Part shown: piece after piece, positions 998 to 64,000 of the stretch
Layout of the letters: the number at the start of each line of letters is the position of its first letter
How positions within the stretch are numbered: the stretch's first letter is position 1
Assembly (NCBI GenBank): GCA_963851265.1
Contig: CAWKNZ010000007.1
Location: forward strand, 224,001-288,000
DNA from: an uncultured Gemmatimonadales bacterium
Lineage (GTDB): Bacteria; Gemmatimonadota; Gemmatimonadetes; Gemmatimonadales; Gemmatimonadaceae
Direction: 5' to 3'
Length of the DNA stretch: 64,000 nt
The notes under the pieces: model-generated
Seen by the model: only the letters and a program-made list of their open reading frames with translations
Told to the model about the DNA's origin: nothing
Database searches by the model: none
Translations under genes and position numbers: made by a program

Positions 998-2421
998 ATC
1001 GCCCGCACCGCCTCGCCCGCCTTGCGCGGGCGCGCACCTTCTGCCGCAGGGCGGCCGCGGCGGTCGCCCTGTCGCCGGCCGTGGTCCGCGGGCAGACGGC
1101 GCCTCCGCCCGACACGTCCGCCGGGAACCGCCCCGCCTCGGCTGGCTCCGCCCGGTGGACGCCGTTCCTGCTCGGCACACAGTTCAACCTCATCACCCAG
1201 CACCTCGCGCGCGTGCCGAGCGCGTACCGCGGGGCCAACAGCCTCGGGCCGGCGTCGTCGACCAAGACGAGCGACGCGTACGGCGTGTACGCCGGCATCG
1301 CCGCGTCGGCGCGGTTCACGGCCTACCTCGACGCGGAAATGATCCGCGGGTCGGGCGTGAACAAGGCGGTGGGACTGGCCGGCTACACCAACGGCGACGT
1401 GATCCGGCAGGGCACGGTCGACCTCGGGGCCGGGCCGTACGTCGCGCGCGCGTTCGTGCGCTACACGGTGCCGTTAGGCGGTCGCGCGCGCGACACGCTG
1501 CCGCGCGGCCAGGACCAGGTGCCCGGCGTGGTCGCGTCGCGCCGCGTGGAGGTCACCGCGGGGAAGCTCGCGGTGTCGGACCTGTTCGATCTGAACCGGT
1601 ACGCGAACACGACGCGCCTGCAGTTCATGAACTGGGGGCTGTTCCAGAACACGTCGTGGGACTTCGCCGCCGACACGCGCGGCTACACCAACGGCGTGGC
1701 CGTGGCGTGGGTGCGACCCGGTACGGTGCTCCGGGTCGGCAGCTTCCAGATGCCCCGCCGCGCCAACGGCAACGTCTTCGACGCCGACCTCGGCCGCGCG
1801 CGCGGCGACCAGGCCGAACTCACCCTGACCCCGACCGCGTTCGGCCTGGGCGCGCGGACGCCGACGGTGCGCGTGCTGGGCTACGTGAACCACGCCCGCA
1901 TGGGAGTCTACCGCGAGGCCATCGCCCAGGGCGCAGCGGCCGGCGCCGCACCGGACGTCGTCGCCACCGACGCGCCGGGGCGGCGCAAGCGCGGCTGGGG
2001 CGTCAACGCGGAGCTCCCGCTCGCGGACGGCGGCGAGACGGGCGCGTTCTTTCGCGCCGGCCGGAGCGACGGCGACGTCGAGAGCTTCGCGTTCACGGAG
2101 GTCGAGCAGCACCTGAGCGGCGGTGGACAGGCGAGCGGCGCCCGCTGGCGGCGGCCGGACGACCGGTTCGGGATCGGCGTCGTCCGGCACGGCCTCTCCG
2201 CGGACCACCAGGCCTACCTCGCCGCGGGCGGGTCGGGATTCCTGCTCGGGGACGGCCGCCTGCGCTACGGGCCCGAGACGATCGCCGAGGCGTACTACCG
2301 CGTGCAGCTGGGCGCGTACCTGCAGGTGAGCCCGGACGTGCAGCGCGTGGTCAACCCGGGCTACAACCGCGACCGCGGCCCCGCGACGGTCACCGGCGTA
2401 CGCGTGAACGCACGCTACTGA
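994..2421 (+). CDS. OprB-family 'carbohydrate porin', MnoP-like outer membrane channel
   Basis: GTG start overlaps the NRAMP stop (GTGA); signal-peptide-like N-terminus; GKLAVSDLFDLNRYAN...QFMNWGL, EAYY and NPGYNRDRGP motifs; C-terminal aromatic residue. Confidence 0.8.
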   Translation: MNRPHRLARLARARTFCRRAAAAVALSPAVVRGQTAPPPDTSAGNRPASAGSARWTPFLLGTQFNLITQHLARVPSAYRGANSLGPASSTKTSDAYGVYAGIAASARFTAYLDAEMIRGSGVNKAVGLAGYTNGDVIRQGTVDLGAGPYVARAFVRYTVPLGGRARDTLPRGQDQVPGVVASRRVEVTAGKLAVSDLFDLNRYANTTRLQFMNWGLFQNTSWDFAADTRGYTNGVAVAWVRPGTVLRVGSFQMPRRANGNVFDADLGRARGDQAELTLTPTAFGLGARTPTVRVLGYVNHARMGVYREAIAQGAAAGAAPDVVATDAPGRRKRGWGVNAELPLADGGETGAFFRAGRSDGDVESFAFTEVEQHLSGGGQASGARWRRPDDRFGIGVVRHGLSADHQAYLAAGGSGFLLGDGRLRYGPETIAEAYYRVQLGAYLQVSPDVQRVVNPGYNRDRGPATVTGVRVNARY

Positions 2422-4307
2422 CCGGCGGCGGGGGCGCCGACCGTCGCCGGCGCCAGGGCGCGCGGCGCCGGGCCGGCGCCGTCCTCGCCCTCGTGACCCG
2501 CCAGCGCGAACGCGGTCCCGACGAGCCCCAGGTGCGAGAACGCCTGCGGGAAGTTGCCCACCAGGCGACCCGACGCCGCGTCGTACTCCTCGCTCAGAAG
2601 GCCGACGTCGTTGCACAGCCCGAGCAAACGCCCGTACAGCGCGCGCGCCTCGGCGATCCGCCCGAGCAGCACGTAGTTCTGCGCCAGCCAGAAGCTGCAG
2701 GCGAGGAACGCGCCCTCGCCCCCGGGTAGCCCGTCGTCGGTCTTCCCGGTCTCGTAACGCCGCACGAAGCCGTGCGCGTCCAGCAGCCGCGCCTCGATGG
2801 CGGCCACCGTGCCGCGCACGCGCGGGTCCATGGGCGGGAGGAAGCCGACCAGCGGGATCATCAGCACGCTCGCGTCGAGCTGCCGGGAGTCGTACGCCTG
2901 CACGAAGCTGCCTAACGTCTGGTCGAACGCGCGGGCACACACCTCCTCGTGGATCCGCGCGGCCACCGCGCGCCACCGGTCCACCGGGCCTTCGAGCCCG
3001 TAGCGCTCGACCGCGCGCACCATGCGGTCGAACGCCACCCACGCCATCACCTTGGAGTGCGTGAAGTGCTGCCGCGAGCCGCGCACCTCCCACAGCCCCT
3101 CGTCGGGCTCGGCCCAGATCGTTTCGAGGTGGTTGGCGAGCGCGCGCGCCAGACTCCACGAATCCGCGCTGTCGGCCGACCCGCCGGCCCGCGCGGACGC
3201 GAGCGCGTCGATCACCTCGCCGAACACGTCGAGTTGCAGCTGGTCGTGCGCGGCGTTGCCGACGCGCACCGGCGCCGAGTTCTCGTATCCCGGAAGCCAC
3301 GGCACCTCCCACTCCAGCAGATGCCGCTCGCCGCGGATTCCGTACATGATCTGCACCTGGTTGGGACTCCCCGCCACCGCGCGGAGCAGCCAGTCGCGCC
3401 ACGACGCCGCCTCGTCGGTGTACCCGGCGTTCATGAGCGCGTTGAGCGTGAGCGTCGCGTCGCGCAGCCAGCAGTAGCGGTAGTCCCAGTTGCGCGGACC
3501 GCCGATCTCCTCGGGGAGCGACGTCGTCGGCGCGGCGACGATGCCCCCCGTGGGCGCGTAGGTCAGCGCCTTGAGGGTGAGCAGCGAGCGCACGACCGCC
3601 TCGCGATGTTCGCCGCGGTACGTGCAGCGCCCCGCCCAGTCGCGCCAGTACGCTTCCGTCTTGGCGAGCGCGAGCATCGGGTCGCTGGCTTCCGGCGGCG
3701 GGGCGTGCGACGCGCCGTAGCTCAGCGTGAACGGCACCGTCTCGCCCTCTGCCACGTCGAACTCGCCCACCGTGGTGAGGTCCTCGCCGCGTAACTCCAC
3801 CGGGGTGCGGAGGATGACCATGTCCGGGCCGGCGATCGCTCGCAGCGCCGTCGCCGGCGTGGGCTGCCCGGTGGCCGTCGCGTCGCGTTCCGCGTCCTGA
3901 TCCCCGTCGAGGCGGCTCACCCACGGGACCGCCATCCCGTATGCGAAGCGTACGACGAACTCGGTGCGCATCGCGACCCGCCCGCGCCGGCCGATGACGA
4001 TCCGCACGAGGTCGGGCTTCTGGTCGCGCACCGGCATGAAGTCGATCACCGTCACCGCGCCCTCGGCCGTCTCCCACTCGGTCTCGAGCACCATCGTATC
4101 GGCGCGGTAGCGCCGCCGCGCGCGCGCGTCCGCGGCGGTCGGCGCGAGCTTCCAGCGGCCATGCTCGGGCGCGCCGATCAGGCCCGCGAAGCACGCCGCG
4201 GAGTCGAAGCGCGGGAGACAGAGCCAGTCGACCGACCCGTCGCGCGAGACGAGGGCGGCGGTCTCGCAGTCGCCGATGAGGGCGTAGTCTTCGATCCGTG
4301 CGGGCAT
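2415..4307 (-). CDS. Glycoside hydrolase family 15 (glucoamylase/trehalase-like)
   Basis: IEDYALIGDCETAALV N-terminus; AAPTTSLPE, RNWDYRYCWLRD, LLSEEYD and GNFPQAFSH motifs. Confidence 0.93.
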   Translation of the reverse strand: MPARIEDYALIGDCETAALVSRDGSVDWLCLPRFDSAACFAGLIGAPEHGRWKLAPTAADARARRRYRADTMVLETEWETAEGAVTVIDFMPVRDQKPDLVRIVIGRRGRVAMRTEFVVRFAYGMAVPWVSRLDGDQDAERDATATGQPTPATALRAIAGPDMVILRTPVELRGEDLTTVGEFDVAEGETVPFTLSYGASHAPPPEASDPMLALAKTEAYWRDWAGRCTYRGEHREAVVRSLLTLKALTYAPTGGIVAAPTTSLPEEIGGPRNWDYRYCWLRDATLTLNALMNAGYTDEAASWRDWLLRAVAGSPNQVQIMYGIRGERHLLEWEVPWLPGYENSAPVRVGNAAHDQLQLDVFGEVIDALASARAGGSADSADSWSLARALANHLETIWAEPDEGLWEVRGSRQHFTHSKVMAWVAFDRMVRAVERYGLEGPVDRWRAVAARIHEEVCARAFDQTLGSFVQAYDSRQLDASVLMIPLVGFLPPMDPRVRGTVAAIEARLLDAHGFVRRYETGKTDDGLPGGEGAFLACSFWLAQNYVLLGRIAEARALYGRLLGLCNDVGLLSEEYDAASGRLVGNFPQAFSHLGLVGTAFALAGHEGEDGAGPAPRALAPATVGAPAAGQ

Positions 4308-4394
4308 GGAATGGGCAGGATGGTGGCGGAGAGCGCGTTAGCGCGTTCCGTACCACGCGCGGAGCGTCCGTCGCGCCGGACGCCGCCCGCCCGG

Positions 4395-5213: not shown

Positions 5214-5465
5214 GGCCGGGCGCGACGCGAGGCGGGGAGGCGAGCTGACATCGGCGCGAAGTGTAGCGCGACGCGGGATCCCCCCGGCCCCGCGCCGCAC
5301 ACGCTGGCGCGTGCGCCGGGTGCCGCGCGGGGTGACGCTGCCGCTACTCGGCGGGTCCTTCGGGGCACCAACTCGTCGCGCGGGCGCCTCGCAGGCCGCG
5401 CCGCGCCGACTCTCCGCCTCACCCCCCGTCGGGACGCGTCGCGCCCCCGGGGCCACGGAGTACGA

Positions 5466-8400
5466 ATGCGTTCATCCAGCTCGTCGCGCGACCTCGCGCG
5501 CCTTCCTCTCTTGGCCCTCCTCACGGCAGCACCGGCCGTCGCGATCGCGCCGGCCGTCGGCGTCGCGCAGCCGGCGGCGCGCGGCACGATCGTCGGCCGC
5601 GTGGTCGACCAGGCCAGCGGCCGCCCGATCGCGGACGCCCAGGTGGTCGTCGTCGGCACCCGCCTCGGCGCGCCGACCGGGCCCGACGGCACGTTCCGCA
5701 TCGTCGGCGCGCCGGCCGGGCCGGCGGTGCTCCGCGCGCTCCGCATCGGCTACCGCGCCGCGACGCAGAACGTGACCGTCCCGTCCGGCGCGTCCGTGAC
5801 CGCGGCGTTCTCGCTCGCCACCACGCCGAGCACGCTCGAACAGGTCGTCGTCACCGCCACGGGCGGCACCCAGCGGCAGCGCGAGCAGGGCAACGCCGTG
5901 TCGCAGATCACCACCGACAGCGTCGCGCTCGCGGCCGTGCCTAACGTGTCGGGGCTGGTCAACGGGCGCGCGGCCGGCGTCTCGGTCGTGGGCACGTCGG
6001 GCAGCACCGGGACGGCGGCCCGCATCCGCATCCGCGGCGCCAACTCGCTGTCGCTGTCCAACGACCCGCTGCTCATCATCGACGGCGTGCGCATCAACTC
6101 CGACCCGAGTTCGGCCGACCCGAACGCGGGCGTCGGCGGGCAGACGCCGTCGCGCCTCAACGACCTGATCCCCGAAGACATCGAGGACATCCAGGTGCTC
6201 AAGGGGCCGGCGGCCACGGGCCTCTACGGCACGCAGGCCGCCAACGGCGTCATCCAGATCACCACCCGGCGCGGCCGCGCGGGGCGCACGCAGTGGAACG
6301 GGTACGCCGAAGGCGGCGCGGTGAACGACCGCAACACGTACCCGGCCAACTGGGGCGCCAACGGGCTGTTCGCCGACGCCTCGGGCGCGCTCACGGTGCC
6401 GTACACCGTCAACCAGCGCTCGTGCGACCTGGTCACGCAGAGCTTCGGCGACTGCAAGCAGACGTCGGTGGTCAACTTCAACCCGCTCGTCGTCCACAGC
6501 CCGTTCCGGACCGGCGCGCGCGAGAAGGCCGGCGCCAACGTGAGCGGCGGGGGCGACCGGAGCACGTACTACCTGTCCGCCGACTACACGAGCGAGGATG
6601 GCGTCTACCGGACGAACTCGCTTCGCCAGGCGAGCGTCCGGGCGAACGTCACCGCCCACCCGGCGTCGACGCTCGACGTGCAGACGTCGGCCGGGTACGT
6701 GCGCTCGTCGCTCGCCCTCCCGCGCAACGACAACGACTACTTCGGCTACATCTCCAACGGGATCGCCGGGCTCGCGTTCGACAACGCGCAGCAGGGCTAC
6801 TACCCGATCGGGCCGAAGATCATCGACCAGCTCTCGGACGGGCAGGACATCAACCGGTTCACCGGGTCGGTCAACGCGACCTACCGCCCGGCGACGTGGC
6901 TGTCGGTGATCGGCGTCGCGGGCGTCGACAACGTGAACCGCTTCGACAACCAGACCTTCCCGGTGGGCGTGATCCCGCCCGGGTACTTCGGCGACAGCGC
7001 GGGCTTCCGCTCGTCGGGCCGGTTCACGACGAACACGTCGACGGCCAACGTCTCGGCCGTGGCGACGCGCCCGATCTCGTCGTCTCTCACGTCGACCACG
7101 ACGGCCGGCTTCCAGTACCAGCGCGACGACTCGCGCGGCACGACCGCCACCGCGTTAGGCCTCGCGGCCGGCACGAGCTCGCTCAACACCGGCGTGAGCC
7201 AGTACACCGTCGCCGAGCCCTTCGCGCGCAGCGCGCTCGTCGGGGGCCTCGTGCAGGAGCAGCTCGCCTTCAGCGACCGCCGCTTCCTCAGCCTCGGCCT
7301 CCGCGGCGACAAGAACAGCGCGTTCGGCAAGAACTTCGGGACGGTCTACTACCCGTCCGCCAACGCGTCGTGGGTGATCAGCGACGAGTCGTTCTTCCCC
7401 AAGCCGCAGGCGCTCACCTCGCTCCGCCTCCGCGCGGCGTACGGGCGGTCGGGGCTGCGCCCCGGCGTCACCGACGCGCTCCTGTACTACCGCGGCGTCA
7501 CGGCGCGCGTGAACGGGGCCGAGCAGTCGGGCATCACGATCGGCAACCTCGGCGACCCGAACCTCCGCCCCGAGCGGACCAACGAGTTCGAGACCGGCCT
7601 CGACCTGAGCGCGTTCAGCGGCCGCACGAACCTCGAAGTCACCTACTACAACAAGCGGTCGCAGGACGCCCTCGTCCTCGTCCCGAGCCCGCCGTCGGGC
7701 GGGTTCCCCGCCCAGTACCGCAACATCGGCGCGGTCGGCAACCGCGGGTTCGAGGCGCTGCTCACGCTGGTGCCGCTCCGCGCGGCGAACGTGGCGTGGA
7801 CGTCGACGTTCAACTTCAGCACCAACCGCAACCGCGTGCTCGCGTTAGGCCTCCCGGCCCCGGTCGTCTTCGGCGGCGGGTACCAGCGCTACCAGGTGGG
7901 TTACCCGGCCGGCGGCTACTGGGACCGCACGTTCACCTACGCCGACGCCAACAAGAACGGCGTCATCGAGCCGAGCGAGATCACGCTGTCCGACACCGCG
8001 CGGTACCTCGGCAGCGCGCTCCCGACGCGCAACCTCGGCTGGACCAACGACGTCACCGTCTTCAAGTGGCTGCGCCTCTCGGCGCTCGTCGACTACAAGG
8101 GCGGGTTCAAGCAGTACAACAGCACCGAGTCGTTCCGCTGCGAGTCGGGCGTCGACGTCTGCCAGGGCATCTTCGACCCCTCGTCGTCGCTCGACCGGCA
8201 GGCGCGGTCCGTCGCGGCCAACGTCTACAACAACCAGAGCGGGTGGATCGAGAACGGCGACTTCGTGAAGCTCCGCGAGGTCTCGCTCACGGCCACGCTG
8301 CCCGACCTGTTCGCGCGGCGCGTCCGCGCGCGCGGCCTCAGCGTCACCGTCGCCGGCCGCAACCTGCACACCTGGACCAACTACAGCGGCGTCGACCCCG

Positions 8401-12237: not shown

Positions 12238-13145
12238 GACGGTGTTATGAACCGGCGGCGAACAGCTTGGCCGCGCGGGCGAGGAGGATACAGGCGAACG
12301 CGAGCACGTGCAGGCCCGCGAGCGTCGTCGGCAGGCGTTCGTAGTCCTTCGCGAGCCGGCGGAAGCGGCGCATCCAGCTAATCGAGCGCTCGACCACCCA
12401 GCGGCGTGGGAGCAGCACGAAGCCGCGCTTCGCCTCAGGCAGTTTCACCACCTCCACCGCGATCCCCGCGGCCGCCGCGTCGGTCCGCACCGCGTCCCCA
12501 CTGTACCCCTGATCCACGTACGCGAGGGCGACCGTGCCGCCGGTGACGGCCTGCACCTCCGCGGCGAGCGCGGCCACCTCGGCGCGTTCGTCGACGTCGG
12601 CCGGCGTGACGCGCAGGGCCAGCAAGTGGCCTAACGTATCGACCGCGAGGTGTAGTTTGCTGCCCTTCTTGCGCTTGTGCCCGCTGTAGCCGGCCCGGGG
12701 CCCGCTCTCGGGCGTGCTCTGGAGGACGGTGCCATCGAGGATCACCGCCGTGGGCTGCGGGCCGCGGCCCGCTCCGTCCTTCGCCTCGACGTCCGCCAGC
12801 CGGAGCACCACCCGGAGGTCGTGCACCATGGCCTCGAACACGCCCGCCCGGAGCCAGCGCTGCGTCTGCTGATACACCGTGTACCACGGTGGGAGGTCGT
12901 GGGGCAGGTAGCGCCACGCGCCCCCCACGCGCACGAGATAGCGCAAGCCGTTGAATACCTCGCGCAGGCTGTGCTCGCGCTGCGCGGCGTCCTCACGCAT
13001 CAGCGTCAGGTACGGGGCGACGAACGCCCACTCTTCTTCCGACACGTCGCTCGGGTACGCCCGCCGGGCCGGCACGTCGGCCGTGAACTGCAGCTGCATG
13101 GCCGTAAGTACCACGGCCGGAAGCACATAGGTTCATGACACCGTC
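12238..13145 (-). mobile_element. Complete IS5-family insertion sequence (~908 bp)
   Basis: 16-bp terminal inverted repeats GACGGTGTTATGAACC (12238-12253) and GGTTCATGACACCGTC (13130-13145) with 1 mismatch; both ends sit in CTAG (TA or CTAG duplication); contains a DDE transposase. Confidence 0.92.
12245..13099 (-). CDS. IS5-family transposase
   Basis: YPSDVSEEEW, WRYLPHDLPPW, KGSKLHLAVDTLG, YVDQGY and RRWVVERSISWMRRFRRLAKDYE motifs; stop codon lies inside the left IR. Confidence 0.93.
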   Translation of the reverse strand: MQLQFTADVPARRAYPSDVSEEEWAFVAPYLTLMREDAAQREHSLREVFNGLRYLVRVGGAWRYLPHDLPPWYTVYQQTQRWLRAGVFEAMVHDLRVVLRLADVEAKDGAGRGPQPTAVILDGTVLQSTPESGPRAGYSGHKRKKGSKLHLAVDTLGHLLALRVTPADVDERAEVAALAAEVQAVTGGTVALAYVDQGYSGDAVRTDAAAAGIAVEVVKLPEAKRGFVLLPRRWVVERSISWMRRFRRLAKDYERLPTTLAGLHVLAFACILLARAAKLFAAGS

Positions 13146-13543: not shown

Positions 13544-15526
13544 ATGCCACGTTCGATTCCCACCGCCGCGCTCGCCGCCGCGCTCACTGCCTTCTGCGCC
13601 ACCGCGACCGTCGCCTGCGCGCAACCCGCGCCGCCGCCCGGCGCCTCGCCCACGGTGCCGCGTTCGCTCTTCCCGGAGTCCGACTCGGCGTTCGTCCGCG
13701 CCAACTACGTGAAGCGCGAGTACCGGGTCCCCATGCGGGACGGCGTGAAGCTGTTCACGATCGTGTACGCGCCGAAGGACGCGGGTGCGACAACGCGGTA
13801 TCCGATGGTCATGCAGCGCACGTGCTACTCGGTCGCGCCGTACGGACCCGACGCGTACGCGCCGACCATCGGCCCCGACCCGTTCATGCTCCGCGACAAG
13901 TACATCTTCGTCTACCAGGACGTGCGGGGCCGGTACGAGAGCGAGGGCGAATTCGTCAACGTGCGCCCGTTCGTCAGCGACTCCGAGAAGGCGCGCAATC
14001 CGAAGGCGGTCGACGAGGCGAGCGACACGTACGACACGATCGACTGGCTGCTCAAGAACGTGTCGGGCCACAACGGCAAGGTCGGGCAGTGGGGGATCAG
14101 CTACCCCGGCTTCTACACGTCGATGGGCGCCCTCTCGCGCCACCCCGCGCTCGTCGCGTCGAGCCCGCAGGCGCCCGTGACCGACTTCTTCTTCGAGGAC
14201 TTCCACCACAACGGCGTGTTGACGCAGGGCTACTTCTACGCCTACCCGTTGTTCGGCATCCCGACCGGCGGGCCGCGCGCCGACAACTGGTGGATGCCGC
14301 GCATGGTCCAGGAGGGGCACGACGACGACTACGACTTTCAGTTAGGCCTCGGCCCGCTCCGCACGACCACCGACCGGTACTACCGCGAGAACGTGTTCTG
14401 GCAGGAGATCATCCGGCACCCCGACTACGATGCCTTCTGGCAGGCGCGCGCGGTGCCGCCGCACCTCACCGGCATCAAGCACGCGGTGATGACCGTCGGC
14501 GGCTGGTTCGACGCCGAGGACCTGTACGGCCCGCTCGCGGTCTACAAGACGATCGAGCGCAACAGCCCGGGCACGTACAACACGATCGTCGAGGGCCCGT
14601 TCCGGCACGGCGGGTGGGCGCGGCAGGGCGTCGAGCACACGATCCACGGCGACCTCTACTTCGGCGACTCGCTCGAGACCAAGTTCCAGCGCGACGTCGA
14701 GGCGGTGTTCTTCCGCCACTGGCTCAAGGGCCCGGCCGATGGCAAGACGGGACTGCCCGACGCTCTGATGTTCGACACCGGCCGCAAGCAGTGGCGCGGC
14801 TTCGACGCGTGGCCGGCGAGGACCGCGCGGCCGCGCAGTTACTACTTCACGGCCGCGGGCGGGCTGACGACCGCCCCCCCGAGCGTGCCGGCGGGCGCGC
14901 CGGCGTTCCGCTCGTACGTGAGCGACCCCGCGCGCCCCGTTCCGAGCCGCTGTCTCGCGCCGACGATCCAGGGGCTCACGATGTACCAGTACATGAGCGA
15001 CGACCAACGGTGTTTCGACGACCGCAAGGACGTGCTCACCTTCGTCACCGACACGCTCCGCGAGGACGTGACGTTGGGCGGCGAGATCACCGCGCGGCTC
15101 CGGGTCGCGACCACGGGCCGAGACGCCGACTACGTGGTCAAGCTCGTCGACGTCTACCCCATGAGCGAGCCCGATCACCCGTACATGCCGTACAAGAACG
15201 TCCACCTCGCGGGCTACCAACAACTCGTGCGCGGCGAGATCATGCGCGCGCGCTACCGCAAGGGCTTCGCGCGCCCCATGCCGATGACGCCCGGCGCGGT
15301 CGAGGACGTGACGTTCCGCCTCCAGGACGTGCTGCACACGTTCAGGAAGGGGCACCGTCTGATGGTGCAGGTGCAGAGCTCGTGGTTCCCCGCGTTCGAC
15401 CGCAACCCGCAGACATACGTGCCCAACATCTACGAGGCACGCGCGTCCGACTTCGTGGCCGCCACGCAGCGCGTCTACACGGGCGGCGCCGACGCGAGCC
15501 GCCTCGACGTACAGGTGCTGCCGTGA
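13544..15526 (+). CDS. CocE/NonD-family serine hydrolase (alpha-amino acid ester hydrolase / X-Pro dipeptidyl-peptidase-like), exported
   Basis: Signal peptide; MRDGVKLFT, QDVRGRYESEG, nucleophile elbow GISYPG and HTFRKGHRLMVQVQSSWFP. Confidence 0.92.
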   Translation: MPRSIPTAALAAALTAFCATATVACAQPAPPPGASPTVPRSLFPESDSAFVRANYVKREYRVPMRDGVKLFTIVYAPKDAGATTRYPMVMQRTCYSVAPYGPDAYAPTIGPDPFMLRDKYIFVYQDVRGRYESEGEFVNVRPFVSDSEKARNPKAVDEASDTYDTIDWLLKNVSGHNGKVGQWGISYPGFYTSMGALSRHPALVASSPQAPVTDFFFEDFHHNGVLTQGYFYAYPLFGIPTGGPRADNWWMPRMVQEGHDDDYDFQLGLGPLRTTTDRYYRENVFWQEIIRHPDYDAFWQARAVPPHLTGIKHAVMTVGGWFDAEDLYGPLAVYKTIERNSPGTYNTIVEGPFRHGGWARQGVEHTIHGDLYFGDSLETKFQRDVEAVFFRHWLKGPADGKTGLPDALMFDTGRKQWRGFDAWPARTARPRSYYFTAAGGLTTAPPSVPAGAPAFRSYVSDPARPVPSRCLAPTIQGLTMYQYMSDDQRCFDDRKDVLTFVTDTLREDVTLGGEITARLRVATTGRDADYVVKLVDVYPMSEPDHPYMPYKNVHLAGYQQLVRGEIMRARYRKGFARPMPMTPGAVEDVTFRLQDVLHTFRKGHRLMVQVQSSWFPAFDRNPQTYVPNIYEARASDFVAATQRVYTGGADASRLDVQVLP

Positions 15527-40246: not shown

Positions 40247-40333
40247 ACCCGTGGGCCCGGCCCGGGAGGGCCGGTCGGGTGCTGGTCCGGGACTTTCGTT
40301 AGGCTCGCCGCTCACTCTTCCGCTTCCGCCGCG

Positions 40334-42833: not shown

Positions 42834-42841
42834 GCGATTCG

Positions 42842-43187: not shown

Positions 43188-43199
43188 CAGAGGTGCTCC

Positions 43200-45117: not shown

Positions 45118-46278
45118 TCAGCGCTCGAACATCCCCTTACGCACGGCAGCGCCGCCGCGGACGTGCCACACGCCGCGCGCCATCACGTCGCGCACCGCGC
45201 CGTCAGGGTCGAGCACGACGAGGTCCGCGTCGCCCCCGACCGCGACGGCGCCCTTCCGGGGCAGGCGCAGCAGCGCCGCCACGTTGGACGTGAACGGCGC
45301 GAGCGCGCTGCCTAACGGAACGCCCCGGGCGAGCAGCGCGCGGAGCACGCCGGCGATCGCGCCAACGTCGCCGACGCCCATGCGCGTCATCTGTCCCTGC
45401 GCGTCGAACACGGGCAGGCTGCCGCCGCCGTCCGAGCTGACCGTGACGCGCTCGGGCGGCGCGCCGCTCGCCCAGTAGCGGACGAGGGCCTCGTCGGCCG
45501 AGTACTCGTCGCCGTGCGGGGCCGGGAAGGCCGTGAGGTCGACCGTGCAGCCCCGCCGCGCGAGCGCGACGGCCTCCTCGAACAGCGCGCGGCGCCGGTT
45601 GACGTGCGTCGGGTTGAACACGCGCGCGGGGATCTCGCTGCGGTCGAGCGCCTCGCGCACGAGCGCGAGCCCGCGCGGACCGTCACCGAGGTGCAGGTGC
45701 ACGACGCCGGCCTTCCGCGTCATCAGTCCCGCCACGTGCGCCTCGGCGGCGAGCTTCACCAGTTCGTCGTACGTCGGCTGGCTGGAGCGGTGATCGCTCA
45801 GCGCGACCTCGCCGACGCCGATGATCCGATCCACGTTCACCATGTCGCCCCGCACGCTCCCCGTGACAGTAGCGGGCGGCACGTGGTAGCCGCCGGTGTG
45901 GCACCACGCCGACAGCCCGTCGTCGACGAGCGCACGGGCGGTGGCGACGAGGCCGATCGGGCCGCGCGTGTAGTCGTCGGTCCCGAGCACGCCCACCGCG
46001 GTGGTCACGCCGCCGAGCGTGAAGAGCGAGAGCGGGATCGGGGGTACGCGGGTCTGCGGACCGGCCTCGCCGCCGCCGCCGGTCAGGTGCACGTGGGCGT
46101 CGATGAACCCGGGGACGAGCCGCGCGCCGTGCAGATCGACCTCCTCGGCGCCGAGCTCGGCGGGGAGCGTCGCGAGGTCCGCGCCCATCCAGACGACGCG
46201 CTCGGCGGCGACGAGCACGTGATGCCGGCCGAGCGAGGCGGGGGCGTAGACGTCCGCATTGCGGAGCAGCGTCAGCAT
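45118..46278 (-). CDS. iadA: Isoaspartyl dipeptidase (beta-aspartyl peptidase)
   Basis: PGFIDAHVHLTGGGGEAG, GVLGTD, GEVALSDHRSSQPT, HLHLGDG, PTHVNR and SSDGGGSLP motifs. Confidence 0.94.
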   Translation of the reverse strand: MLTLLRNADVYAPASLGRHHVLVAAERVVWMGADLATLPAELGAEEVDLHGARLVPGFIDAHVHLTGGGGEAGPQTRVPPIPLSLFTLGGVTTAVGVLGTDDYTRGPIGLVATARALVDDGLSAWCHTGGYHVPPATVTGSVRGDMVNVDRIIGVGEVALSDHRSSQPTYDELVKLAAEAHVAGLMTRKAGVVHLHLGDGPRGLALVREALDRSEIPARVFNPTHVNRRRALFEEAVALARRGCTVDLTAFPAPHGDEYSADEALVRYWASGAPPERVTVSSDGGGSLPVFDAQGQMTRMGVGDVGAIAGVLRALLARGVPLGSALAPFTSNVAALLRLPRKGAVAVGGDADLVVLDPDGAVRDVMARGVWHVRGGAAVRKGMFER

Positions 46279-47294: not shown

Positions 47295-50192
47295 ATGCGC
47301 ATCCTCGAGCAGTCCGTCTACGTGGGCCCCAACCACTACGCCCACTTCCCCGTGATCCGCCTCGCGCTCGACCTCGGCGTGTTCGAGGCGTGGCCGTCGG
47401 CGCGACTCGGGCCCGCGTTCACCGACGCGCTGCTCGCGGCGATCCCCACGCTCGCCGAGCACGGCTGCTCGTACGGCGTGCCGGGCGGGTTCGTGCGGCG
47501 GCTGACGGAGGACGAGGGCACGTGGATGGGGCACGTGCTCGAGCACGTCGCGATCGAGTTGCAGAACATCGCGGGGGAGCGGGTGTCGTTCGGGAAGACG
47601 CGCTCGATCGCGGGGCAGGTGGGCGTGTACGACGTCGTGTACGAGTACGAGCAGCGCGACGTCGGCACCGAGGCCGGACAGCTCGCGCTCGACCTGCTGC
47701 ACGCGCTCGCGGTGCCGTTGCTGCCCGACGCCGAGCGCCCGCCCGAGGCCGCCGCGGCGGCGACGTTCGACTGGACGGAGCGGCGCGACGCGTTCATCCG
47801 CTACGCGCAGCGCCGCGCGCTGGGCCCGAGCACGGCGGCGATCGTCCACGCGGCCGAGCGGCGCGGGATTCCGTGGATCCGGCTCAACGCGCAATCGCTC
47901 GTGCAGCTGGGGTATGGGCGCAACCAGCAGCGCATCCAGGCGACGGTGACGGGGCGCACGCCGCACATCGCCGTCGAGATCGCGAGCGACAAGGAGGAGA
48001 CCAACACGCTGCTGGCGAACCTCGGGCTGCCGGTGCCGCGGCAGGCGCTGGTGTACGACGCGGACGAGGCGGCGGACGAGGCCGCGCGGATCGGATACCC
48101 GGTCGTGGTGAAGCCGTACAACGGCAACCACGGGCGGGGCGTGTCGGTTGGGCTGACGACGGCCGACGGCGTGCGCGGGGCATTCGCGCTCGCTGCCGAG
48201 CACTCGACTGCGGTGCTCGTCGAGACGTTCATCGCCGGGGACGACCACCGCATGCTCGTGGTCGACGGCGCGCTCGTCGCGGTGAGCAAGCGCGTGCCGG
48301 GGCACGTCGTCGGCGACGGCGCGCACACCGTGGCCGAACTCGTGGCGGCCGTGAACGCCGACCCGCGCCGCGGGATCGGGCACGAGAAGGTGCTGACGCA
48401 GCTGCGGCTCGACGAGCAGGCGTTAGGCCTGCTCGCCGCGCGCGGGTGGACCCCCGAGACGGTGCCGCCCGCGGGCGAGCCGGTGATGCTGCGGCGCACG
48501 GCCAACCTTTCGACGGGCGGGACCGCGGAGGACGTCACGGACGTGGTGCACCCCGACAACGCGGAGATGGCCGTGCGCGCCATTCAGGCCGTGGGGCTGG
48601 ACGTGGGGGGAGTCGACTTCCTCACGCCCGACATCACGTGCTCCTACAAGGACGCCGGCGGCGCGATCTGCGAGGTGAACGCGGCGCCGGGTTTCCGGAT
48701 GCACATGGCGCCGAGCGCGGGCAAGCCGCGCGACGTGGCGGCGCGCGTGATCGACATGCTGTTTCCGCCCGCGCGCCCCGCGACGATCCCGATCGCGGCC
48801 GTGACGGGGACCAACGGCAAGACCACGACGGCGCGCATGCTCGCGCACATCCACAAGCTCGCCGGGCGGCGCGTTGGGCTCACGACCACGGACGGCGTCT
48901 ACATCGACGGGCAGCGCACCGTCGAGGGCGACATGACCGGGCCGACGTCGGCGCGCATCGTGCTCGGCGACCCGTCGGTGGACGTCGCGGTGCTGGAGAC
49001 GGCGCGCGGCGGCCTGCTGCGCTCGGGGATGGCGATGCGACGCGTCGACGTCGGCGCCGTGCTCAACGTGCAGCCCGACCACCTGGGCCAGCGCGGCGTC
49101 GAGACACTCGAGCAGCTGGCGCTCGTGAAGCGCACCGTGGTCGAGATCGCGACCGACACCGCGGTGCTCAACGCCGACGACCCGCTCACGGTGCGCATGG
49201 CGGCGCACACCGACGCCACGCACGTGTGCTACGTGACGATGGACGCGGGGAACGTGCTCGTCGGCGAGCACATCCGCGCCGGCGGCCGCGCCGTCGCGCT
49301 CGAAACGGGCGTGAACGGGCAGATGATCACGATCTACGATCACGGCGCGCACATCCCGCTCCTGTGGACGCACCTGATTCCCGCGGCGCTCGACGGGCGC
49401 GCGACGTTCAACGTGCAGAACGCGATGTTCGCCGCGGCGATGGCGTTCGCGATGGGCGTGCGGCTCGAGGACATCCGCCACGGGCTGCGCACGTTCGACA
49501 GCACGTTCTTCCAGGCGCCGGGGCGGCTCAACGTGTACGACGGACACCCGTTTCGCGTGCTGTTCGACTACGCGCACAACGCCAACGCCGTGGCGGCGCT
49601 CGTCGACACGGCGCGACGGCTGGACGTGGCGGGACGGCGGATTTTCGTGTTCTCCGCGCCCGGGGATCGCCGGGACGAGGACATCCGTGCGACCGCGCGC
49701 GCGGCGGCGGCGGGACGCTTCGACGTGTACATCTGCCGGCGCGACGACAACCCGCGCGGGCGCGCCAGTGACGAGGTGCCGCGCATGCTGGCCGACGCCC
49801 TCGTCGACGCGGGCGTCCCGCGCGAGCGGGTCGCGATCATCGTCTCGGAAGTGGCCGCGATCGATGCGGCGCTCGGGATGGCGCGCAAGGGCGACCTCGT
49901 GATGATCTGTGCCGACGTGCTCGACCGCGGGTGGCAGCAGATCGTCGACTACGGCGCGCGCGACCGGGGCAACGGCGCGGCGGCCGGGACGGCCTCGGCG
50001 GAGGGCATGCCGCCCGCGCCCGCCGTGACGGCCCCGCGCGCCGCGCCGCACGACGTCGCGCCCGCGGACGAGGCGGCACCGCCCGTTCCGAACGCGCTGG
50101 CGGTCGGGCCGCCAAACGGCGACGGCGCGACCACGCGCTACCGGCGCGACGCGCGCGGCGTGATCGTCGCGCGTGACGAGTCCGACGACTAA
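47295..50192 (+). CDS. cphA: Cyanophycin synthetase CphA1
   Basis: N domain with C...HVLEH, ATP-grasp (VVKPYNGNHGRGV, ANLSTGGT, EVNAAPG) and Mur-ligase domain (VTGTNGKTTT, LETARGG, DYAHN). Confidence 0.96.
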   Translation: MRILEQSVYVGPNHYAHFPVIRLALDLGVFEAWPSARLGPAFTDALLAAIPTLAEHGCSYGVPGGFVRRLTEDEGTWMGHVLEHVAIELQNIAGERVSFGKTRSIAGQVGVYDVVYEYEQRDVGTEAGQLALDLLHALAVPLLPDAERPPEAAAAATFDWTERRDAFIRYAQRRALGPSTAAIVHAAERRGIPWIRLNAQSLVQLGYGRNQQRIQATVTGRTPHIAVEIASDKEETNTLLANLGLPVPRQALVYDADEAADEAARIGYPVVVKPYNGNHGRGVSVGLTTADGVRGAFALAAEHSTAVLVETFIAGDDHRMLVVDGALVAVSKRVPGHVVGDGAHTVAELVAAVNADPRRGIGHEKVLTQLRLDEQALGLLAARGWTPETVPPAGEPVMLRRTANLSTGGTAEDVTDVVHPDNAEMAVRAIQAVGLDVGGVDFLTPDITCSYKDAGGAICEVNAAPGFRMHMAPSAGKPRDVAARVIDMLFPPARPATIPIAAVTGTNGKTTTARMLAHIHKLAGRRVGLTTTDGVYIDGQRTVEGDMTGPTSARIVLGDPSVDVAVLETARGGLLRSGMAMRRVDVGAVLNVQPDHLGQRGVETLEQLALVKRTVVEIATDTAVLNADDPLTVRMAAHTDATHVCYVTMDAGNVLVGEHIRAGGRAVALETGVNGQMITIYDHGAHIPLLWTHLIPAALDGRATFNVQNAMFAAAMAFAMGVRLEDIRHGLRTFDSTFFQAPGRLNVYDGHPFRVLFDYAHNANAVAALVDTARRLDVAGRRIFVFSAPGDRRDEDIRATARAAAAGRFDVYICRRDDNPRGRASDEVPRMLADALVDAGVPRERVAIIVSEVAAIDAALGMARKGDLVMICADVLDRGWQQIVDYGARDRGNGAAAGTASAEGMPPAPAVTAPRAAPHDVAPADEAAPPVPNALAVGPPNGDGATTRYRRDARGVIVARDESDD

Positions 50193-56366: not shown

Positions 56367-56387
56367 CCGCGCGGCCCGACGAACGGC

Positions 56388-57137
56388 CTAACGATCCGGC
56401 GTCGCGTCGAGAACCTCGGCGCGCTCGGCCGAGAGCGTCAGCTCCTCCGTCGCGCCAGCCGCGTGCGCCGCGTGCGCGCGCGACCGCGCGAGCTGCCCGC
56501 GCGCCGCGGCGAGCTTCGCGTCGAGCACGCGCACGCGGTCGTCGGCGCGCGCGACCTCGAACCCCGCGGCGAGCTTCCTCTGGTCGAGCGCCCGGAGTTC
56601 GGTGAGGTGGCGCGCGGCGTCGTTGCGGTCGGCCTCCAGCTGCACGACGTCGGCCGCCTGGGAGGCGACGAGCGCCTCGAGATCGTCACCGCCCGCGGCA
56701 CCGACGATGCGCTGGCCCACGACCGTCACGCCCGCGAGCTGCACCCGCAGCGCGGGGCCGACGCCCGCCGGCACCTCGACCACCACGACCGGCAGTCTCC
56801 GCCCCGCGACCCGCGCGCGCGACATCGACGCGGCGCCCGCGGCCGTTCCGGACTCGACGGCGCGCGTGATCCGCAGCTCCGCCGCGGCCGAACGCGGCGC
56901 AGCGGCGCGCGTGCCGGGCGCCGAACTCGTTAGGCGAAGGTCCATCGCCCACGCGCAAAACCCGGCGGCGGCGCGCGCCGAATCGCTCGCCTCCGTCTCG
57001 GTCACCGTGACGAACACCGCGCCCGCGGGCGCACCCGAGCCCGGCGCGCACGGCGCGGCGTCGCGCGCGGCCAGCGCCGGGACCGTGTCGCGCCGACCGA
57101 CGGCCGCGGCGAGAAGCAGGGAAGCCGCAATCCACAT
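56388..57137 (-). CDS. Exported hypothetical protein with Hcp-like segments and a coiled-coil insert
   Basis: Signal peptide; LRITRAVE, GRRLPVVVVEV, LRVQLAGVTV and TEELTLSAERAEV. Confidence 0.55.
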   Translation of the reverse strand: MWIAASLLLAAAVGRRDTVPALAARDAAPCAPGSGAPAGAVFVTVTETEASDSARAAAGFCAWAMDLRLTSSAPGTRAAAPRSAAAELRITRAVESGTAAGAASMSRARVAGRRLPVVVVEVPAGVGPALRVQLAGVTVVGQRIVGAAGGDDLEALVASQAADVVQLEADRNDAARHLTELRALDQRKLAAGFEVARADDRVRVLDAKLAAARGQLARSRAHAAHAAGATEELTLSAERAEVLDATPDR

Positions 57138-58197: not shown

Positions 58198-58323
58198 GCG
58201 GCGAGCTGGGAGACAGGCGAGGGGGCGCGTGGTGCGCTGCTCAACGTAGCCGTCGCGGTCGCGCGATCGGCCGCGCGGTAGGGACCACGAGGCCAGGCCC
58301 GCGGATCGCGCTCCCGAACTGCG

Positions 58324-59304: not shown

Positions 59305-59306
59305 GC

Positions 59307-60512
59307 TCAGGCCGCGTCTCCGCCCGGCCCGGGCACGGCCGGGAGGCGCCCGTCGACGTCGTCCTCGGGCGCGACGACGAGCACGTCGAGGCGGGACCCG
59401 CCGTCGAGCAGCCGCTCGACCACCGACCCGCGGCGCAGGCGGTACCAGCGCGAGCGCCGCGTCGCGCCCACCACGGCGAGCGTGACGCCGCGCTCCGCCG
59501 CGAACCGCGCGAGCGCCGCGGCGACGTCCTCTCCCTCGAGCTTCACCACCTCCGCGCCTAACGTCTGGGCGCGCTGGATGTTCTCGACGAGCCGCCGCTG
59601 CACGGCGGTGTCGATGCGGTCGGCCGACTCGGCGGCCGTCTGCACGTACACGCAGTACCAGTCGGAGTTGAGGCGCCCCGCGATGCGGCTCGCCTTGCGG
59701 AGCAGCACGCGCGAGAGCGGCGGGTCGCTCGACAGGCAGACCATCAGGCGATCGACGGCGCGGGGGGCGGCGCGAGGCGCGTCGGGCGCGCCCAGCCGCG
59801 CGATCCCCGCCTCGCGCCCGCGGTCCACGGCGCCGGCGACCTCGCGCAGGGCGAGTTCTCGCAGCGTCGAGAGGTTCTCGTCGGTGAAGAAGTGGGCGAG
59901 CGCCGCGTCGATCTTCTCCGCGCGGTAGATCTTCCCGTCGCGCAGCCGCTGGCGCAGGTCGTCGGCCGCGAGGTCGAGGTTGACCACCTGGTCGGCCTGC
60001 GCGACCACCCAGTCGGGCACCGTCTCGCGGACCGTGACGCCGAGTTCGCGCTCGACCACGTCGTTCAGCGACTCGAGGTGCTGCACGTTGACCGCCGAGA
60101 TCACGTTGATCCCCTCGTCGAGAAGGAAGATCACGTCCTGCCAGCGCTTCGCGTTCCGGCTGCCGGGCACGTTGGTGTGCGCGAGCTCGTCGACGAGGGT
60201 GACCTGCGGGCGGCGCGCGAGCACGCCGTCCACGTCCATCTCGTCGAGCGTGACGCCGCGGTACGCGATGCGTGCCCGCGGCACCACTTCCAGGTCCCCG
60301 AGCTGCGCGTCGGTATCGGCGCGCCCGTGCGTCTCGACGAAGCCGACGACGACGTCGACGTTGCGCCGCCTGAGGTCGTGGGCCTCCTGCAGCATGCGGT
60401 ACGTCTTCCCGACGCCCGCCGCCATGCCGACGTAGAGCTTCAGCTTCCCGCGCTCGCGACGCGTGACGAGGTCGAGGAACGACGGCGCGGCGTTGGGCGC
60501 GGGGGCGGTCAT
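59307..60512 (-). CDS. kdpD: KdpD N-terminal sensor domain + universal stress protein domain (split KdpD)
   Basis: GKLKLYVGMAAGVGKTYRML, ETHGR, LVDELAHTN, KRWQDV and NVQHLESLND, then a USP domain; no TM or kinase part. Confidence 0.9.
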   Translation of the reverse strand: MTAPAPNAAPSFLDLVTRRERGKLKLYVGMAAGVGKTYRMLQEAHDLRRRNVDVVVGFVETHGRADTDAQLGDLEVVPRARIAYRGVTLDEMDVDGVLARRPQVTLVDELAHTNVPGSRNAKRWQDVIFLLDEGINVISAVNVQHLESLNDVVERELGVTVRETVPDWVVAQADQVVNLDLAADDLRQRLRDGKIYRAEKIDAALAHFFTDENLSTLRELALREVAGAVDRGREAGIARLGAPDAPRAAPRAVDRLMVCLSSDPPLSRVLLRKASRIAGRLNSDWYCVYVQTAAESADRIDTAVQRRLVENIQRAQTLGAEVVKLEGEDVAAALARFAAERGVTLAVVGATRRSRWYRLRRGSVVERLLDGGSRLDVLVVAPEDDVDGRLPAVPGPGGDAA

Positions 60513-60573
60513 GGTCGCGAGGGCGGGGTCGCGAGGGCGTCGCGGGGTGTCGCGCGCGGAGCGGGTGCGCGCG

Positions 60574-61830: not shown

Positions 61831-61835
61831 GGAAG

Positions 61836-62456: not shown

Positions 62457-62465
62457 CGGAGTGTG

Positions 62466-64000
62466 TTAGACGAGGCGGAGCGCGACGAGCAGCACGTCGA
62501 TGAGCTTGATGCCGACGAACGGCACGATCAGCCCGCCAACGCCGTACACGAGCAGGTTGCGTCGCAGGATCGCCCCGGCCGACGCGGGGCGGTACGCCAC
62601 GCCGCGCAGCGCGAGCGGGATCAGCGCGACGATGATCAGGGCGTTGAAGATCACGCTGGCGAGGATCGCGCTCTCGGGCGAGTGCAGCCGCATGACGTTG
62701 AGCGACTCCAGCCCGCCGCGCGCGCCGTACACCGTGAGGAAGATCGCCGGGATGATCGCGAAGTACTTGGCCACGTCGTTCGCGATCGAGAACGTGGTCA
62801 GCGAGCCGCGGGTCATCAGCAGCTGCTTCCCGATCTCGACGATCTCGATGAGCTTGGTCGGGTTGGAGTCGAGGTCGACCATGTTCCCCGCCTCCTTGGC
62901 CGCCTGCGTCCCGCTGTTCATCGCCACCCCGACGTCGGCCTGCGCCAGCGCGGGCGCGTCGTTGGTGCCGTCGCCGGTCATCGCGACCAGCTTCCCGCCG
63001 CCCTGTTCGCGCCGGATGAGCGCCATCTTGTCCTCCGGCTTCGCCTCGGCGAGGAAGTCGTCCACGCCGGCCTCCTTCGCGATCGCGGCCGCCGTGAGCG
63101 GGTTGTCGCCCGTGATCATGACGGTGCGGATCCCCATCGCGCGCAGCCGGTCGAACCGCTCGCGCATGCCGCCCTTCACGATGTCCTTGAGGTAGATCAC
63201 GCCGAGGGCGCGCGCCGTGCCGTTCAGCCGCTCGGCGACGACGAGCGGCGTACCGCCCTCGCGCGCCACGCGTTCGACGGTGGCGCCCATCTCGGCGGGC
63301 GCACGTCCGCCGTGCTCCGCGAGCCAGCGTGCCACCGACTCGCCGGCGCCCTTGCGCACCTCGAAGCGCGCCGCGCCGTGGCCGACGTTGACGCCGCTCA
63401 TCCGCGTGCTCGCCGAGAAGGGCACGAACTCGGTCTCGCCCTGGCCGTCCGCGGCGCCGACCTCGCGCCCGCGCAGCCCGTACGCGTCCTTCGCGAGCAC
63501 CACGACGCTGCGCCCCTCGGGCGTCTCGTCGGCGAGTGAGGAGAGCTGTGCGCGGTCGGCGAGGTACGCCTCGTCGACGCCCGGCAGCGCGTAGAACGCC
63601 GCCGCCTGCCGGTTGCCTAACGTGATCGTCCCGGTCTTGTCGAGCAGGAGCGTGTTCACGTCCCCCGCCGCCTCGACCGCGCGCCCGCTCGTCGCGATGA
63701 CGTTCTGCTGGATCATGCGGTCCATCCCCGCGATGCCGATCGCCGACAGCAGCCCGCCGATCGTCGTCGGGATGAGGCAGACGAGCAGCGCGATGAGCAC
63801 CGGTACGCTCACCGGCGCGCCGGCGTACGCCGCGAACGGCTGCAGCGTCGCGACCGCGAGCACGAAGACGATCGTCAGCCCCGAGAGAAGGATGGTGAGC
63901 GCGATCTCGTTGGGCGTCTTCTGCCGGCTCGCGCCCTCGACGAGCGCGATCATCCGATCGATGAAGGTCTCGCCCGGGTTGGCCGCGATGCGCACGACGA
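62466..64000 (-). CDS. kdpB: K+-transporting ATPase subunit B (5' part outside window)
   Basis: [33 protein letters not shown] and [13 protein letters not shown] motifs. Confidence 0.97.

Follow-up and report, generated by a model that had tools for sequence, protein, structure and literature searches.

A lineage-restricted DNA word of Gemmatimonadaceae that is spelled as an integron attC R box and may behave like a DNA uptake sequence

In Neisseriaceae, the minor pilin ComP reads DNA uptake sequences (DUS), and Pasteurellaceae carry uptake signal sequences (USS); to our knowledge ComP_DUS is the only known family of DUS receptors, and sequence-tagged DNA exchange is known to us in no more than two families, both proteobacterial. 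Another abundant word, 8 bp long, located inside genes, patchy in its distribution and linked to cognate methyltransferases, is HIP1, the cyanobacterial highly iterated palindrome GCGATCGC. Sections of PMC2397512 describe neisserial DUS as much better conserved than their surroundings and report that one DUS suffices, a second close copy adding nothing. Here we analyse a word, GTTAGGC, usually extended to the octamer CGTTAGGC, that is dispersed over a 64,000-nt stretch of DNA from an uncultured Gemmatimonadales bacterium (contig CAWKNZ010000007.1, positions 224,001 to 288,000; hereafter the window) and over the whole genome that holds it (G000; 4.6 Mb, 12 contigs, 73% GC).

An initial annotation of the window had reported 23 copies of GTTAGGC, and every coordinate proved exact, with 15 copies on the + strand and 8 on the - strand; 100 dinucleotide shuffles of the window (GC 68-76%) yielded a mean of 2.66 copies and 5 at most. 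Its count of 18 copies extended to CGTTAGGC was borne out as well, compared with 1.39 in the shuffles. The enrichment is not confined to this stretch: on both strands, G000 contains 1762 GTTAGGC, of which 1396 are CGTTAGGC, and GTTAGGC makes up 71% of all 2470 TTAG tetramers. Relative to a low-order Markov expectation, CGTTAGGC and the words overlapping it are the top over-represented 8-mers of G000, with an observed/expected ratio (O/E) of about 28. GTTAGGC is preceded by C 1396 times, by T 243 times, by G 69 times and by A 54 times. Single-mismatch variants of CGTTAGGC are mostly not enriched, the exceptions being CGTTGGGC, CGTTAGAC and CGTTAGTC (about 2.1-2.3-fold) and CGTTAGGA (1.75-fold), with CGTTATGC and CGTTAGGT near 1. 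Because 277 strictly intergenic copies keep preferences at the flanking positions -1 (C 204, T 45) and +7 (G 141, A 74, C 48, T 14), the recognised word is about YGTTAGGCR; neither the logo nor these intergenic copies revealed a conserved flank past -1 and +7. A sequencing or assembly artefact is ruled out by the presence of the word in all five genomes of the genus (assembled in 1 to 960 contigs), in 47 of 151 genomes of the family and on the megaplasmids of a finished isolate. Pairing with 16S rRNA was also discarded, the rRNA blocks containing 0 copies. The word is thus genuine and genome-wide.

We then classified the copies by reading frame, using gene calls from a crude custom caller based on GC3 and codon likelihood (3659 genes, 87% coding), so that the class counts are approximate: 993 copies are sense xxG-TTA-GGC, 198 antisense CCT-AAC, 70 antisense CTA-ACG, 23 GTT-AGG and 81 TAG stops, and 397 lie outside called genes. 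In-gene copies number 1016 in sense and 268 in antisense orientation, compared with 34 and 25 after a synonymous-codon shuffle that keeps the proteins and global codon usage; a dicodon-preserving shuffle is an uninformative null, as it keeps TTA-GGC by construction. All four open frames exceed expectation (TTA-GGC 1001 vs 75, CCT-AAC 203 vs 38, GTT-AGG 23 vs 2.8 and CTA-ACG 73 vs 35). Stop codons are caught up in the word too, with GCC-TAA-C at 120 of 425 TAA stops (28%) and GT-TAG-GC at 83 of 727 TAG stops, and TTA codons stand ahead of GGC in 1001 of 1282 cases (78%). The frames given by the initial annotation for the window agree with ours: 17 copies read TTA-GGC, two CCT-AAC (5939, 38343), one CTA-ACG (56929), two provide CGT-TAG stops (42829, 56386) and one is intergenic (40298).

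A signal in RNA or translation that rides on the rare TTA codon might be proposed from the 79% of in-gene copies (1016/1284) that are sense, from the predominance of TTA-GGC in the window and from tRNA-Leu(UAA), which is present in G000, so that TTA can be decoded. However, the sense bias of about 4:1 arises because Leu-Gly is common and not from a strand preference: among peptide sites able to spell the word, it occupies 9.2% of sense X-Leu-Gly, 13.8% of antisense X-Pro-Asn, 3.8% of xGC-CTA-ACx and 0.7% of Val-Arg sites. Antisense frames, stops and spacers are enriched, and spacer copies ignore the direction of transcription, 106 running along it and 113 against it in co-directional spacers. 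We accordingly rejected a translation or RNA signal; the word is read at the level of DNA, irrespective of strand, frame and transcription. The density in spacers is highest between convergent genes (92 copies in 62.8 kb) and lowest between divergent genes (59 in 173 kb), which fits accumulation where constraint is weakest.

The initial annotation had also likened the word to polar signals of the Chi or KOPS type, and this analogy failed. Strand totals in G000 are 885 on + and 877 on -, and once gene strand is controlled, 0 of 22 regions of 300 kb favour an absolute strand (sum of squared z, Q=12.8, p=0.94); spacer copies are split 243 vs 235 by strand with no regional heterogeneity (p=0.47). 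The GC skew of G000 is too weak for use. The only good dif-like site of the genome (contig C2, position 1368948; …CTTATAA-TATATG-TTATGTAAACC), where gene orientation flips from mostly + to mostly -, probably marks the terminus, and the spacer copies that flank it comprise 31 on the leading and 32 on the lagging strand. Five genomes were searched for RecC and gave no match, and the AddAB-like nuclease domain PDDEXK_1 appeared only in G000 and in the motif-poor G006, being absent from G012, the densest genome. Taken together, a polar recombination or segregation signal, or an RNA or translation signal, strikes us as scarcely credible. Gaps between copies are distributed near exponentially (mean 2592 bp, coefficient of variation 1.07), except that short gaps are under-represented, with 78 below 300 bp vs 191 expected. 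Word density and local GC climb together: windows of lowest GC hold 0.24 copies per kb and those of highest GC 0.51, a trend opposite to what composition alone would give, because the word contains A/T. A spacer at C2:116027 holds a perfect 30-nt hairpin made of an inverted word pair (GCCTAACG…CGTTAGGC, 4-nt loop), the sole terminator-like pair that we saw.

Next, we compared orthologues from the window and a second region with those of two relatives, G004 (98 genes) and G001 (87 genes), at a nucleotide identity of 82-83% (71% at third positions), using Fisher tests between classes. In-frame GTTAGGC is retained at 18 of 24 sites in G004 and 13 of 22 in G001. By contrast, retention is 12% and 13%, respectively, for other A/T-ending codons, 4-10% and 4-9% for the rare Leu codons TTG, CTT and CTA, 48% and 42% for the optimal-codon equivalent GCTCGGC, and 29% and 28% for all other in-frame 7-mers. 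Orthologous sites that lack the word read GCTCGGC, GCTGGGC, CCTCGGC, GTTGGGC, GATGGGC, CCTGGGC and so on, with one to at least three substitutions and 0 indels, and footprints of insertion or excision are rejected on this account. In a comparison with G012, which belongs to a different genus (128 gene pairs, about 60% amino-acid identity), sites that are Leu-Gly in both genomes carry the word in G012 at 8 of the 16 sites where G000 has it vs 35 of 172 others (p=0.012). Leu-Gly itself is conserved equally at word sites (16/33) and elsewhere (172/375), which argues that the word does not mark special residues. The word arises by substitution and is then held far more tightly than synonymous sites. 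The first proposal of a DNA-level signal kept despite codon bias is thereby upheld, by enrichment in four open frames, in stop codons, in spacers and on both strands together with conservation across species.

Only certain lineages have the word switched on. In a set of 31 relatives, the genus of G000 is rich throughout (five genomes, 727-2415 copies of the 8-mer), G012 reaches 6360, and counts of 345-605 come from G008, G017, G018 and, in another family, G030; most of the others have fewer than 60, lower than the reversed-word control. A survey of the family (151 genomes, 68 genera; three rows, G011, G047 and G093, are flagged unpublished and support no claim here) found at least 400 copies in 47 genomes, 100-399 in 9 and fewer than 100 in 95. 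The trait is mostly uniform within a genus, with the exception of G114, which has 66 copies vs about 4000 in its congeners G061 and G151. A quick maximum-likelihood tree built from one gene (the PilQ domain, 38 genomes) and rooted solely at its midpoint requires 7 or more changes of the rich/poor label, 6 of them forced by well-supported branches, vs a mean of 12.9 for shuffled labels; further contrasts on this tree set G045 against G052 and the genus of G000, and G007 against G085. Across 260 kb of G012 the word stands at 1.45 per kb (O/E 46), accompanied by the minor variant CGTTAGGT, and in the stretches sampled TTA makes up 36% of all Leu codons before GGC. The highest O/E in 400 kb of motif-poor G006 is about 5, and no alternative hyper-abundant word emerged there. 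In the cultured Gemmatirosa kalamazoonensis KBS708, both ~1-Mb plasmids (NZ_CP007129.1 and NZ_CP007130.1) bear the word at 0.5-0.8 per kb; 150 kb sampled from them hold 101 GTTAGGC, with 79 copies of the 8-mer vs 0 of the reversed control, and the word accounts for 86-90% of TTAG/CTAA tetramers.

Such on/off switching would be expected of an accessory, mobile enzyme, and the word could then be a footprint of biased repair or gene conversion, functionless in itself, in which a nickase, a glycosylase or a modification-linked repair system resolves near-cognate mismatches to YGTTAGGC. Precedents exist, in that Vsr enriches CCWGG in E. coli and highly iterated palindromes accompany methyltransferases in cyanobacteria. 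The sharpness of the word, with most one-off variants unenriched, the 2.2-fold enrichment of the intermediate-like CGTTGGGC, an excess of TTG-GGC (485 vs 304 expected) and a rise in density with GC that could reflect recombination-associated conversion are all in line with a footprint. On the other hand, Vsr-type repair of T:G to C:G cannot make the T-T-A core from a GC-rich background, and non-motif orthologues are mostly 2-3 positions away from the word (GCTCGGC, CCTGGGC). Moreover, the methylation or Vsr analogy drawn in the initial annotation met with no intact enzyme in G000 among the three families searched (PF01555, PF00145 and PF02384; Vsr and other families lay outside the search): G000 gave nothing for PF01555 or PF00145 and just frameshifted fragments of PF02384, rich G008 lacks PF02384, and no C5 methyltransferase was found in five genomes. 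On balance, we regard a repair footprint as unlikely. Two loci of G000, C7:771474-772495 and C9:923-1858, show PF02384 N6-adenine methyltransferase homology broken across several frames and look like decayed restriction-modification genes.

The conservation and spacing of the copies would be equally expected if the word were a selected binding site on the chromosome. Tyrosine recombinases of the Xer/IntI type read asymmetric arms of 7-11 bp, and an abundant protein that stays inside the cell, either a nucleoid organiser or an Xer/IntI-family monomer, might be served by such a site through selection acting copy by copy. In keeping with this idea, the word is sharp and asymmetric and corresponds to the R box that, according to sections of PMC12901181, is bound by IntI as double-stranded DNA in attI; it is strongly conserved, has few close pairs, is dense on the two G. 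kalamazoonensis megaplasmids and occurs in divergent, promoter-bearing spacers at a quarter of its convergent density. The longest word-free stretch of G000 (C1:182876-227962; 45,086 bp, normal GC of 0.738, P about 3e-8) could also be accommodated, as it carries the origin-proximal genes mnmG/gidA, parA, parB and mnmE, whose orthologues hold only 2 copies in G001 and 1 in G004. Yet the surroundings of parB in G012 have 1.25 copies per kb, and we therefore rejected an origin exclusion zone as a general rule; the desert may reflect an old block replacement or a genus-specific exclusion. Further, no candidate protein tracks the word. Integron integrase scored over the cut-off in 18 of 31 genomes and was, if anything, intact less often where the word abounds (seemingly intact in 3 of 10 rich vs 13 of 21 poor genomes, p=0.14), and rich G008 and G018 give only generic Xer-level matches. 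FtsK was found in 39 of 41 genomes, rich and poor alike, and is single-copy in 38 of these 39, the exception being G162 with two matches; no second, TraB-like copy tracks the word, and the XerD arm of the dif-like site is without it. Finally, thousands of selected sites written in rare codons would be a heavy load, one that two thirds of the family manage without. We hold a chromosomal binding site to be a serious but somewhat doubtful alternative.

Our preferred explanation, which we put forward tentatively and as one that could well be wrong, is that the word resembles DNA uptake sequences in function, has a putative reader of its own and owes its spread to a drive coupled to DNA transfer. 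We favour a drive of the DUS/USS type because the anatomy of the word matches that of DNA uptake sequences and because a complete route of uptake is encoded, in the form of ComEC (31 of 31 genomes), ComEA-type HHH_3 (39 of 40, at similar copy number in rich and poor genomes) and PilQ-like secretin genes (41 of 41). A putative sequence-specific protein would read YGTTAGGCR as double-stranded DNA; new copies would arise by ordinary point substitution, for example from CTC/CTG-GGC to TTA-GGC; and DNA bearing the word would be favoured when DNA moves between cells and recombines. Such favouring would act when competent cells take up DNA or, with lower probability, during packaging or translocation, and copies would build up wherever coding permits and then stay put.

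Several observations weigh against the proposal of an uptake signal. Our data hold no sign of competence or biased uptake, and for Gemmatimonadota the literature searched yielded no account of the word, of any uptake sequence or of natural transformation. ComEC, ComEA-like and PilQ-like genes occur throughout the family and show no correspondence with the word. The receptor family ComP_DUS (PF16732) gave 0 of 8 first-look candidates that pass in G000 and, across 31 genomes, a single match over the cut-off, in motif-poor G014, the weak pilin matches elsewhere being uncorrelated with the word. More broadly, no family tested tracks the rich/poor distinction, be it intI, ComP_DUS, ComEC, ComEA/HHH_3, PilQ, FtsK, RecC, PDDEXK_1 or the three methyltransferase families. 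With at least 7 on/off switches in one family, the trait is less stable than the DUS of Neisseriaceae, a word of 8-9 bp is short, and inverted terminator pairs are nearly absent apart from the one perfect hairpin on C2. Genes without orthologues are not less dense in the word than others (0.30 vs 0.22-0.32 per kb, a small sample). Lastly, the idea of uptake alone leaves the exact match to the integron R box unexplained.

That match, missed by the initial annotation, shows in genomes that are poor in the word. These have few copies, clustered in arrays of one orientation with a spacing of about 550 bp, which are integron cassette arrays, some of them adjoining intI. In motif-poor G021 and G019, the attC sites consist of GCCTAAC, an imperfect palindrome of about 83 nt and then YCGTTAGGC. 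G000 has an integron of its own, spread over C6:1-6300 and C10:193000-215025, the ends of which contigs may join: its split intI (C6:3005-6044) consists of two parts separated by about 2 kb, and attC sites of 96-119 nt with the same GCCTAAC…GTTAGGC layout lie at C6:925 and at C10:193-211 kb. Its cassettes carry BrnT, PIN/DUF433 and DUF4926/DUF6883 toxin-antitoxin pairs, and two IS110-family copies sit among them. In sections of PMC8876359 and PMC12901181, the integron core sites are given as R' = GTTRRRY and R'' = RYYYAAC, with crossover after the first G, and IntI1 is described as binding the double-stranded R box of attI (PMC12901181). GTTAGGC fits the GTTRRRY core, and the genome-wide word is spelled as the attC R box of this order, whose attC sites end in exactly CGTTAGGC, flanking C included. 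Chance is an unlikely reason for agreement at 8 of 8 positions with a site that existed beforehand and is defined by its function. The occurrences of GTTAGGC among the literature matches listed are primers or incidental strings, and we found no paper pairing GTTAGGC with GTTRRRY.

The dispersed copies themselves are not attC sites. They have neither an L box in the logo nor a partner arm, and among the 25 best-folding of 109 RYYYAAC-N35-130-GTTAGGC candidates, attC-like hairpins occur only in the integron region of C10 and C6. Integration into genomic attG sites has reportedly been observed (Loot 2024, as cited in PMC12901181), and the copies could be imagined as working targets of the integron integrase, secondary or attG-type, that act as landing pads or as raw material for cassettes. 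The identity of the 8-mer with the R' end of attC in G021, G019 and the G000 cassettes speaks for such a role, as does a core and G/TT crossover that are textbook (PMC8876359 and PMC12901181). Against it, the attC partner and L box are missing at dispersed copies, intI does not track the word, most copies lie inside genes, where a cassette would be destructive, and no route emerged by which IntI could write the word. Only 1 of 11 indels between G000 and G001/G004 has the word near a boundary, and cassette insertion at dispersed copies was rejected on this basis. We give very little credence to integrase targets of this sort.

The R-box match may nonetheless tie the specificity of a reader acting in DNA transfer to integron cassettes. 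One speculative and rather improbable version is that the transfer apparatus is tuned to the attC R box, so that cassette arrays, with a word every ~550 bp, would be preferentially imported from environmental DNA, and that the same bias stamped the core site through housekeeping genes. If so, ~1,400-6,000 perfect R boxes per chromosome would be secondary sites for integron integrases as well as raw material for new cassettes, and cassette-tuned transfer would bear on the unsolved origin of gene cassettes.

Within the window, the genes that host the word are ordinary ones, encoding a porin, glycosyl hydrolases, TonB-dependent receptors, a trehalase, a cyanophycin synthetase-like protein and an IS4/5 transposase. 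The copies listed below are CGTTAGGC unless another octamer is given. The first, at 1473..1479 (+), reads xCG-TTA-GGC in an OprB-family porin gene (1081-2418, +), and the next, at 2910..2916 (-), reads TTA-GGC in a GH15 glycosyl hydrolase gene (2418-4307, -). A TonB-dependent receptor gene (5511-8525, +) has three copies, one antisense at 5939..5945 (-) that reads CCT-AAC and two that read TTA-GGC, at 7154..7160 (+), where G004 has the motif, and at 7844..7850 (+), where the G004 site is GCTCGGC. TTA-GGC recurs at 12629..12635 (-) in the gene of an IS4/5-family DDE transposase (12248-13099, -), the copy that had been placed within an IS transposase from the start, and at 14341..14347 (+) as AGTTAGGC in an S15 X-Pro dipeptidyl-peptidase gene (13655-15523, +), where it is present in G004. 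The segment 18572-31840 comprises a SusC/SusD-like pair (a TonB-dependent receptor and a SusD family protein) followed by two huge repeat proteins of the FG-GAP/ASPIC type, the first of 1648 aa with a PAP2 phosphatase domain at its end, the second of 1164 aa. The gene of this first repeat protein (23403-28346, +) contains TTA-GGC at 23687..23693 (+), replaced by GCTCGGC in both G004 and G001, and at 24134..24140 (+), present in G001 and replaced by CCTGGGC in G004; that of the second (28349-31840, +) contains TTA-GGC as TGTTAGGC at 31111..31117 (+), present in both relatives.

Further along, TTA-GGC is found as GGTTAGGC at 33300..33306 (+) in an alpha-amylase-family gene (31909-33357, +), where G004 and G001 have CGTTAGGC, and as TGTTAGGC at 35588..35594 (+) in the gene 35049-36200 (+), present in both relatives. 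The trehalase gene (36982-38697, +) carries TTA-GGC at 37554..37560 (+), where G004 reads GCTCGGG and G001 TTTAGGC, and an antisense CCT-AAC copy at 38343..38349 (-), present in G004 and read as GTTGGGC in G001. An MFS transporter gene (38837-40243, +) holds TTA-GGC as TGTTAGGC at 39316..39322 (+), also present in G004, and the copy at 40298..40304 (+) lies in the spacer between this gene and a glucose-1-phosphate nucleotidyltransferase-like gene (40334-41602, +). At 42829..42835 (+) the word provides the stop CGT-TAG of a GT4 glycosyltransferase gene (41607-42830, +). Both relatives share the TTA-GGC copies at 45310..45316 (-), in an amidohydrolase gene (45121-46278, -), and at 48422..48428 (+), in the cyanophycin synthetase-like gene (47295-50189, +). 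The gene 56391-57137 (-) takes its stop CGT-TAG from the copy at 56386..56392 (-) and has an antisense copy at 56929..56935 (+) that reads CTA-ACG. The last two copies are TTA-GGC at 59556..59562 (-) in the gene 59310-60512 (-), where G004 has GATGGGC (Met-Gly), and ACG-TTA-GGC at 63615..63621 (-) in a gene that runs from 62469 to past 64000 (-) and so leaves the window, with the motif present in G004.

The word dominates the statistics of rare codons and could mislead analyses of codon usage, gene calling and horizontal transfer. A separate codon-pair bias, independent of the word, is that CTG is strongly avoided before G-starting codons in G000 (10-21% of Leu vs 34% overall), an effect that is weaker in G006. 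Should the proposal of a DUS-like signal be correct, it would constitute a third and independent case of sequence-tagged DNA exchange, in an abundant soil phylum, with a different word and no ComP-type receptor, and it would offer a handle on gene flow among soil Gemmatimonadota. The identity with the R box joins two unconnected fields, that of uptake or self tags and that of integron recombination, and raises the testable question of whether anything besides IntI reads GTTAGGC. The cultured and completely sequenced KBS708, together with sister genomes that are rich (G061, G151) or poor (G114) in the word, open the search for the reader at the bench and by comparative genomics.

How, then, does the word compare with described systems? 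Like Chi (RecBCD/AddAB) and KOPS (FtsK), it is an asymmetric, over-represented 8-mer; those are read by a translocating enzyme and are co-oriented with replication, whereas the present word is non-polar, with RecC not found in the genomes searched and neither AddAB-like domains nor FtsK tracking it. It shares with HIP1 the character of a hyper-abundant 8-bp word inside genes that occurs in some lineages and not in others and is presumably preserved as DNA. The initial annotation had named both HIP1 and DNA uptake sequences as analogies, of which the former holds less well, as YGTTAGGC is asymmetric and HIP1 palindromic and the three methyltransferase families searched have no intact member in G000, while the latter is the best anatomical fit. 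With integron attC and attI sites the word has an identical spelling that includes the flanking C, the attC of this order being GCCTAAC(G)...(C)GTTAGGC. Unlike these sites, the dispersed copies are single, without L boxes or hairpin partner, outside arrays and not beside intI, and they are substitutions in conserved genes, independent of the presence of intI. From DUS and USS the word differs in its length (8-9 bp vs 9-12), in being written in the rarest codons and not in preferred ones, in the lack of any ComP-family receptor among the matches found here, in the near absence of terminator pairs and in its repeated gain and loss within a family; for this phylum, the literature searched reports neither competence nor an uptake sequence. 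The likeness is nevertheless extensive. As in DUS and USS, there is one exact short word on both strands, without replichore polarity, in genes, gene ends and spacers and in all frames that coding permits. Its density of 0.38 per kb in G000 and 1.25-1.45 per kb in the G012 samples falls within the range that sections of PMC2817400 tabulate for USS/DUS genomes. Its copies are conserved far above background, close pairs, useless for DUS, are scarce here, and the trait is limited to certain lineages, as PMC2397512 and PMC2817400 describe for uptake sequences.

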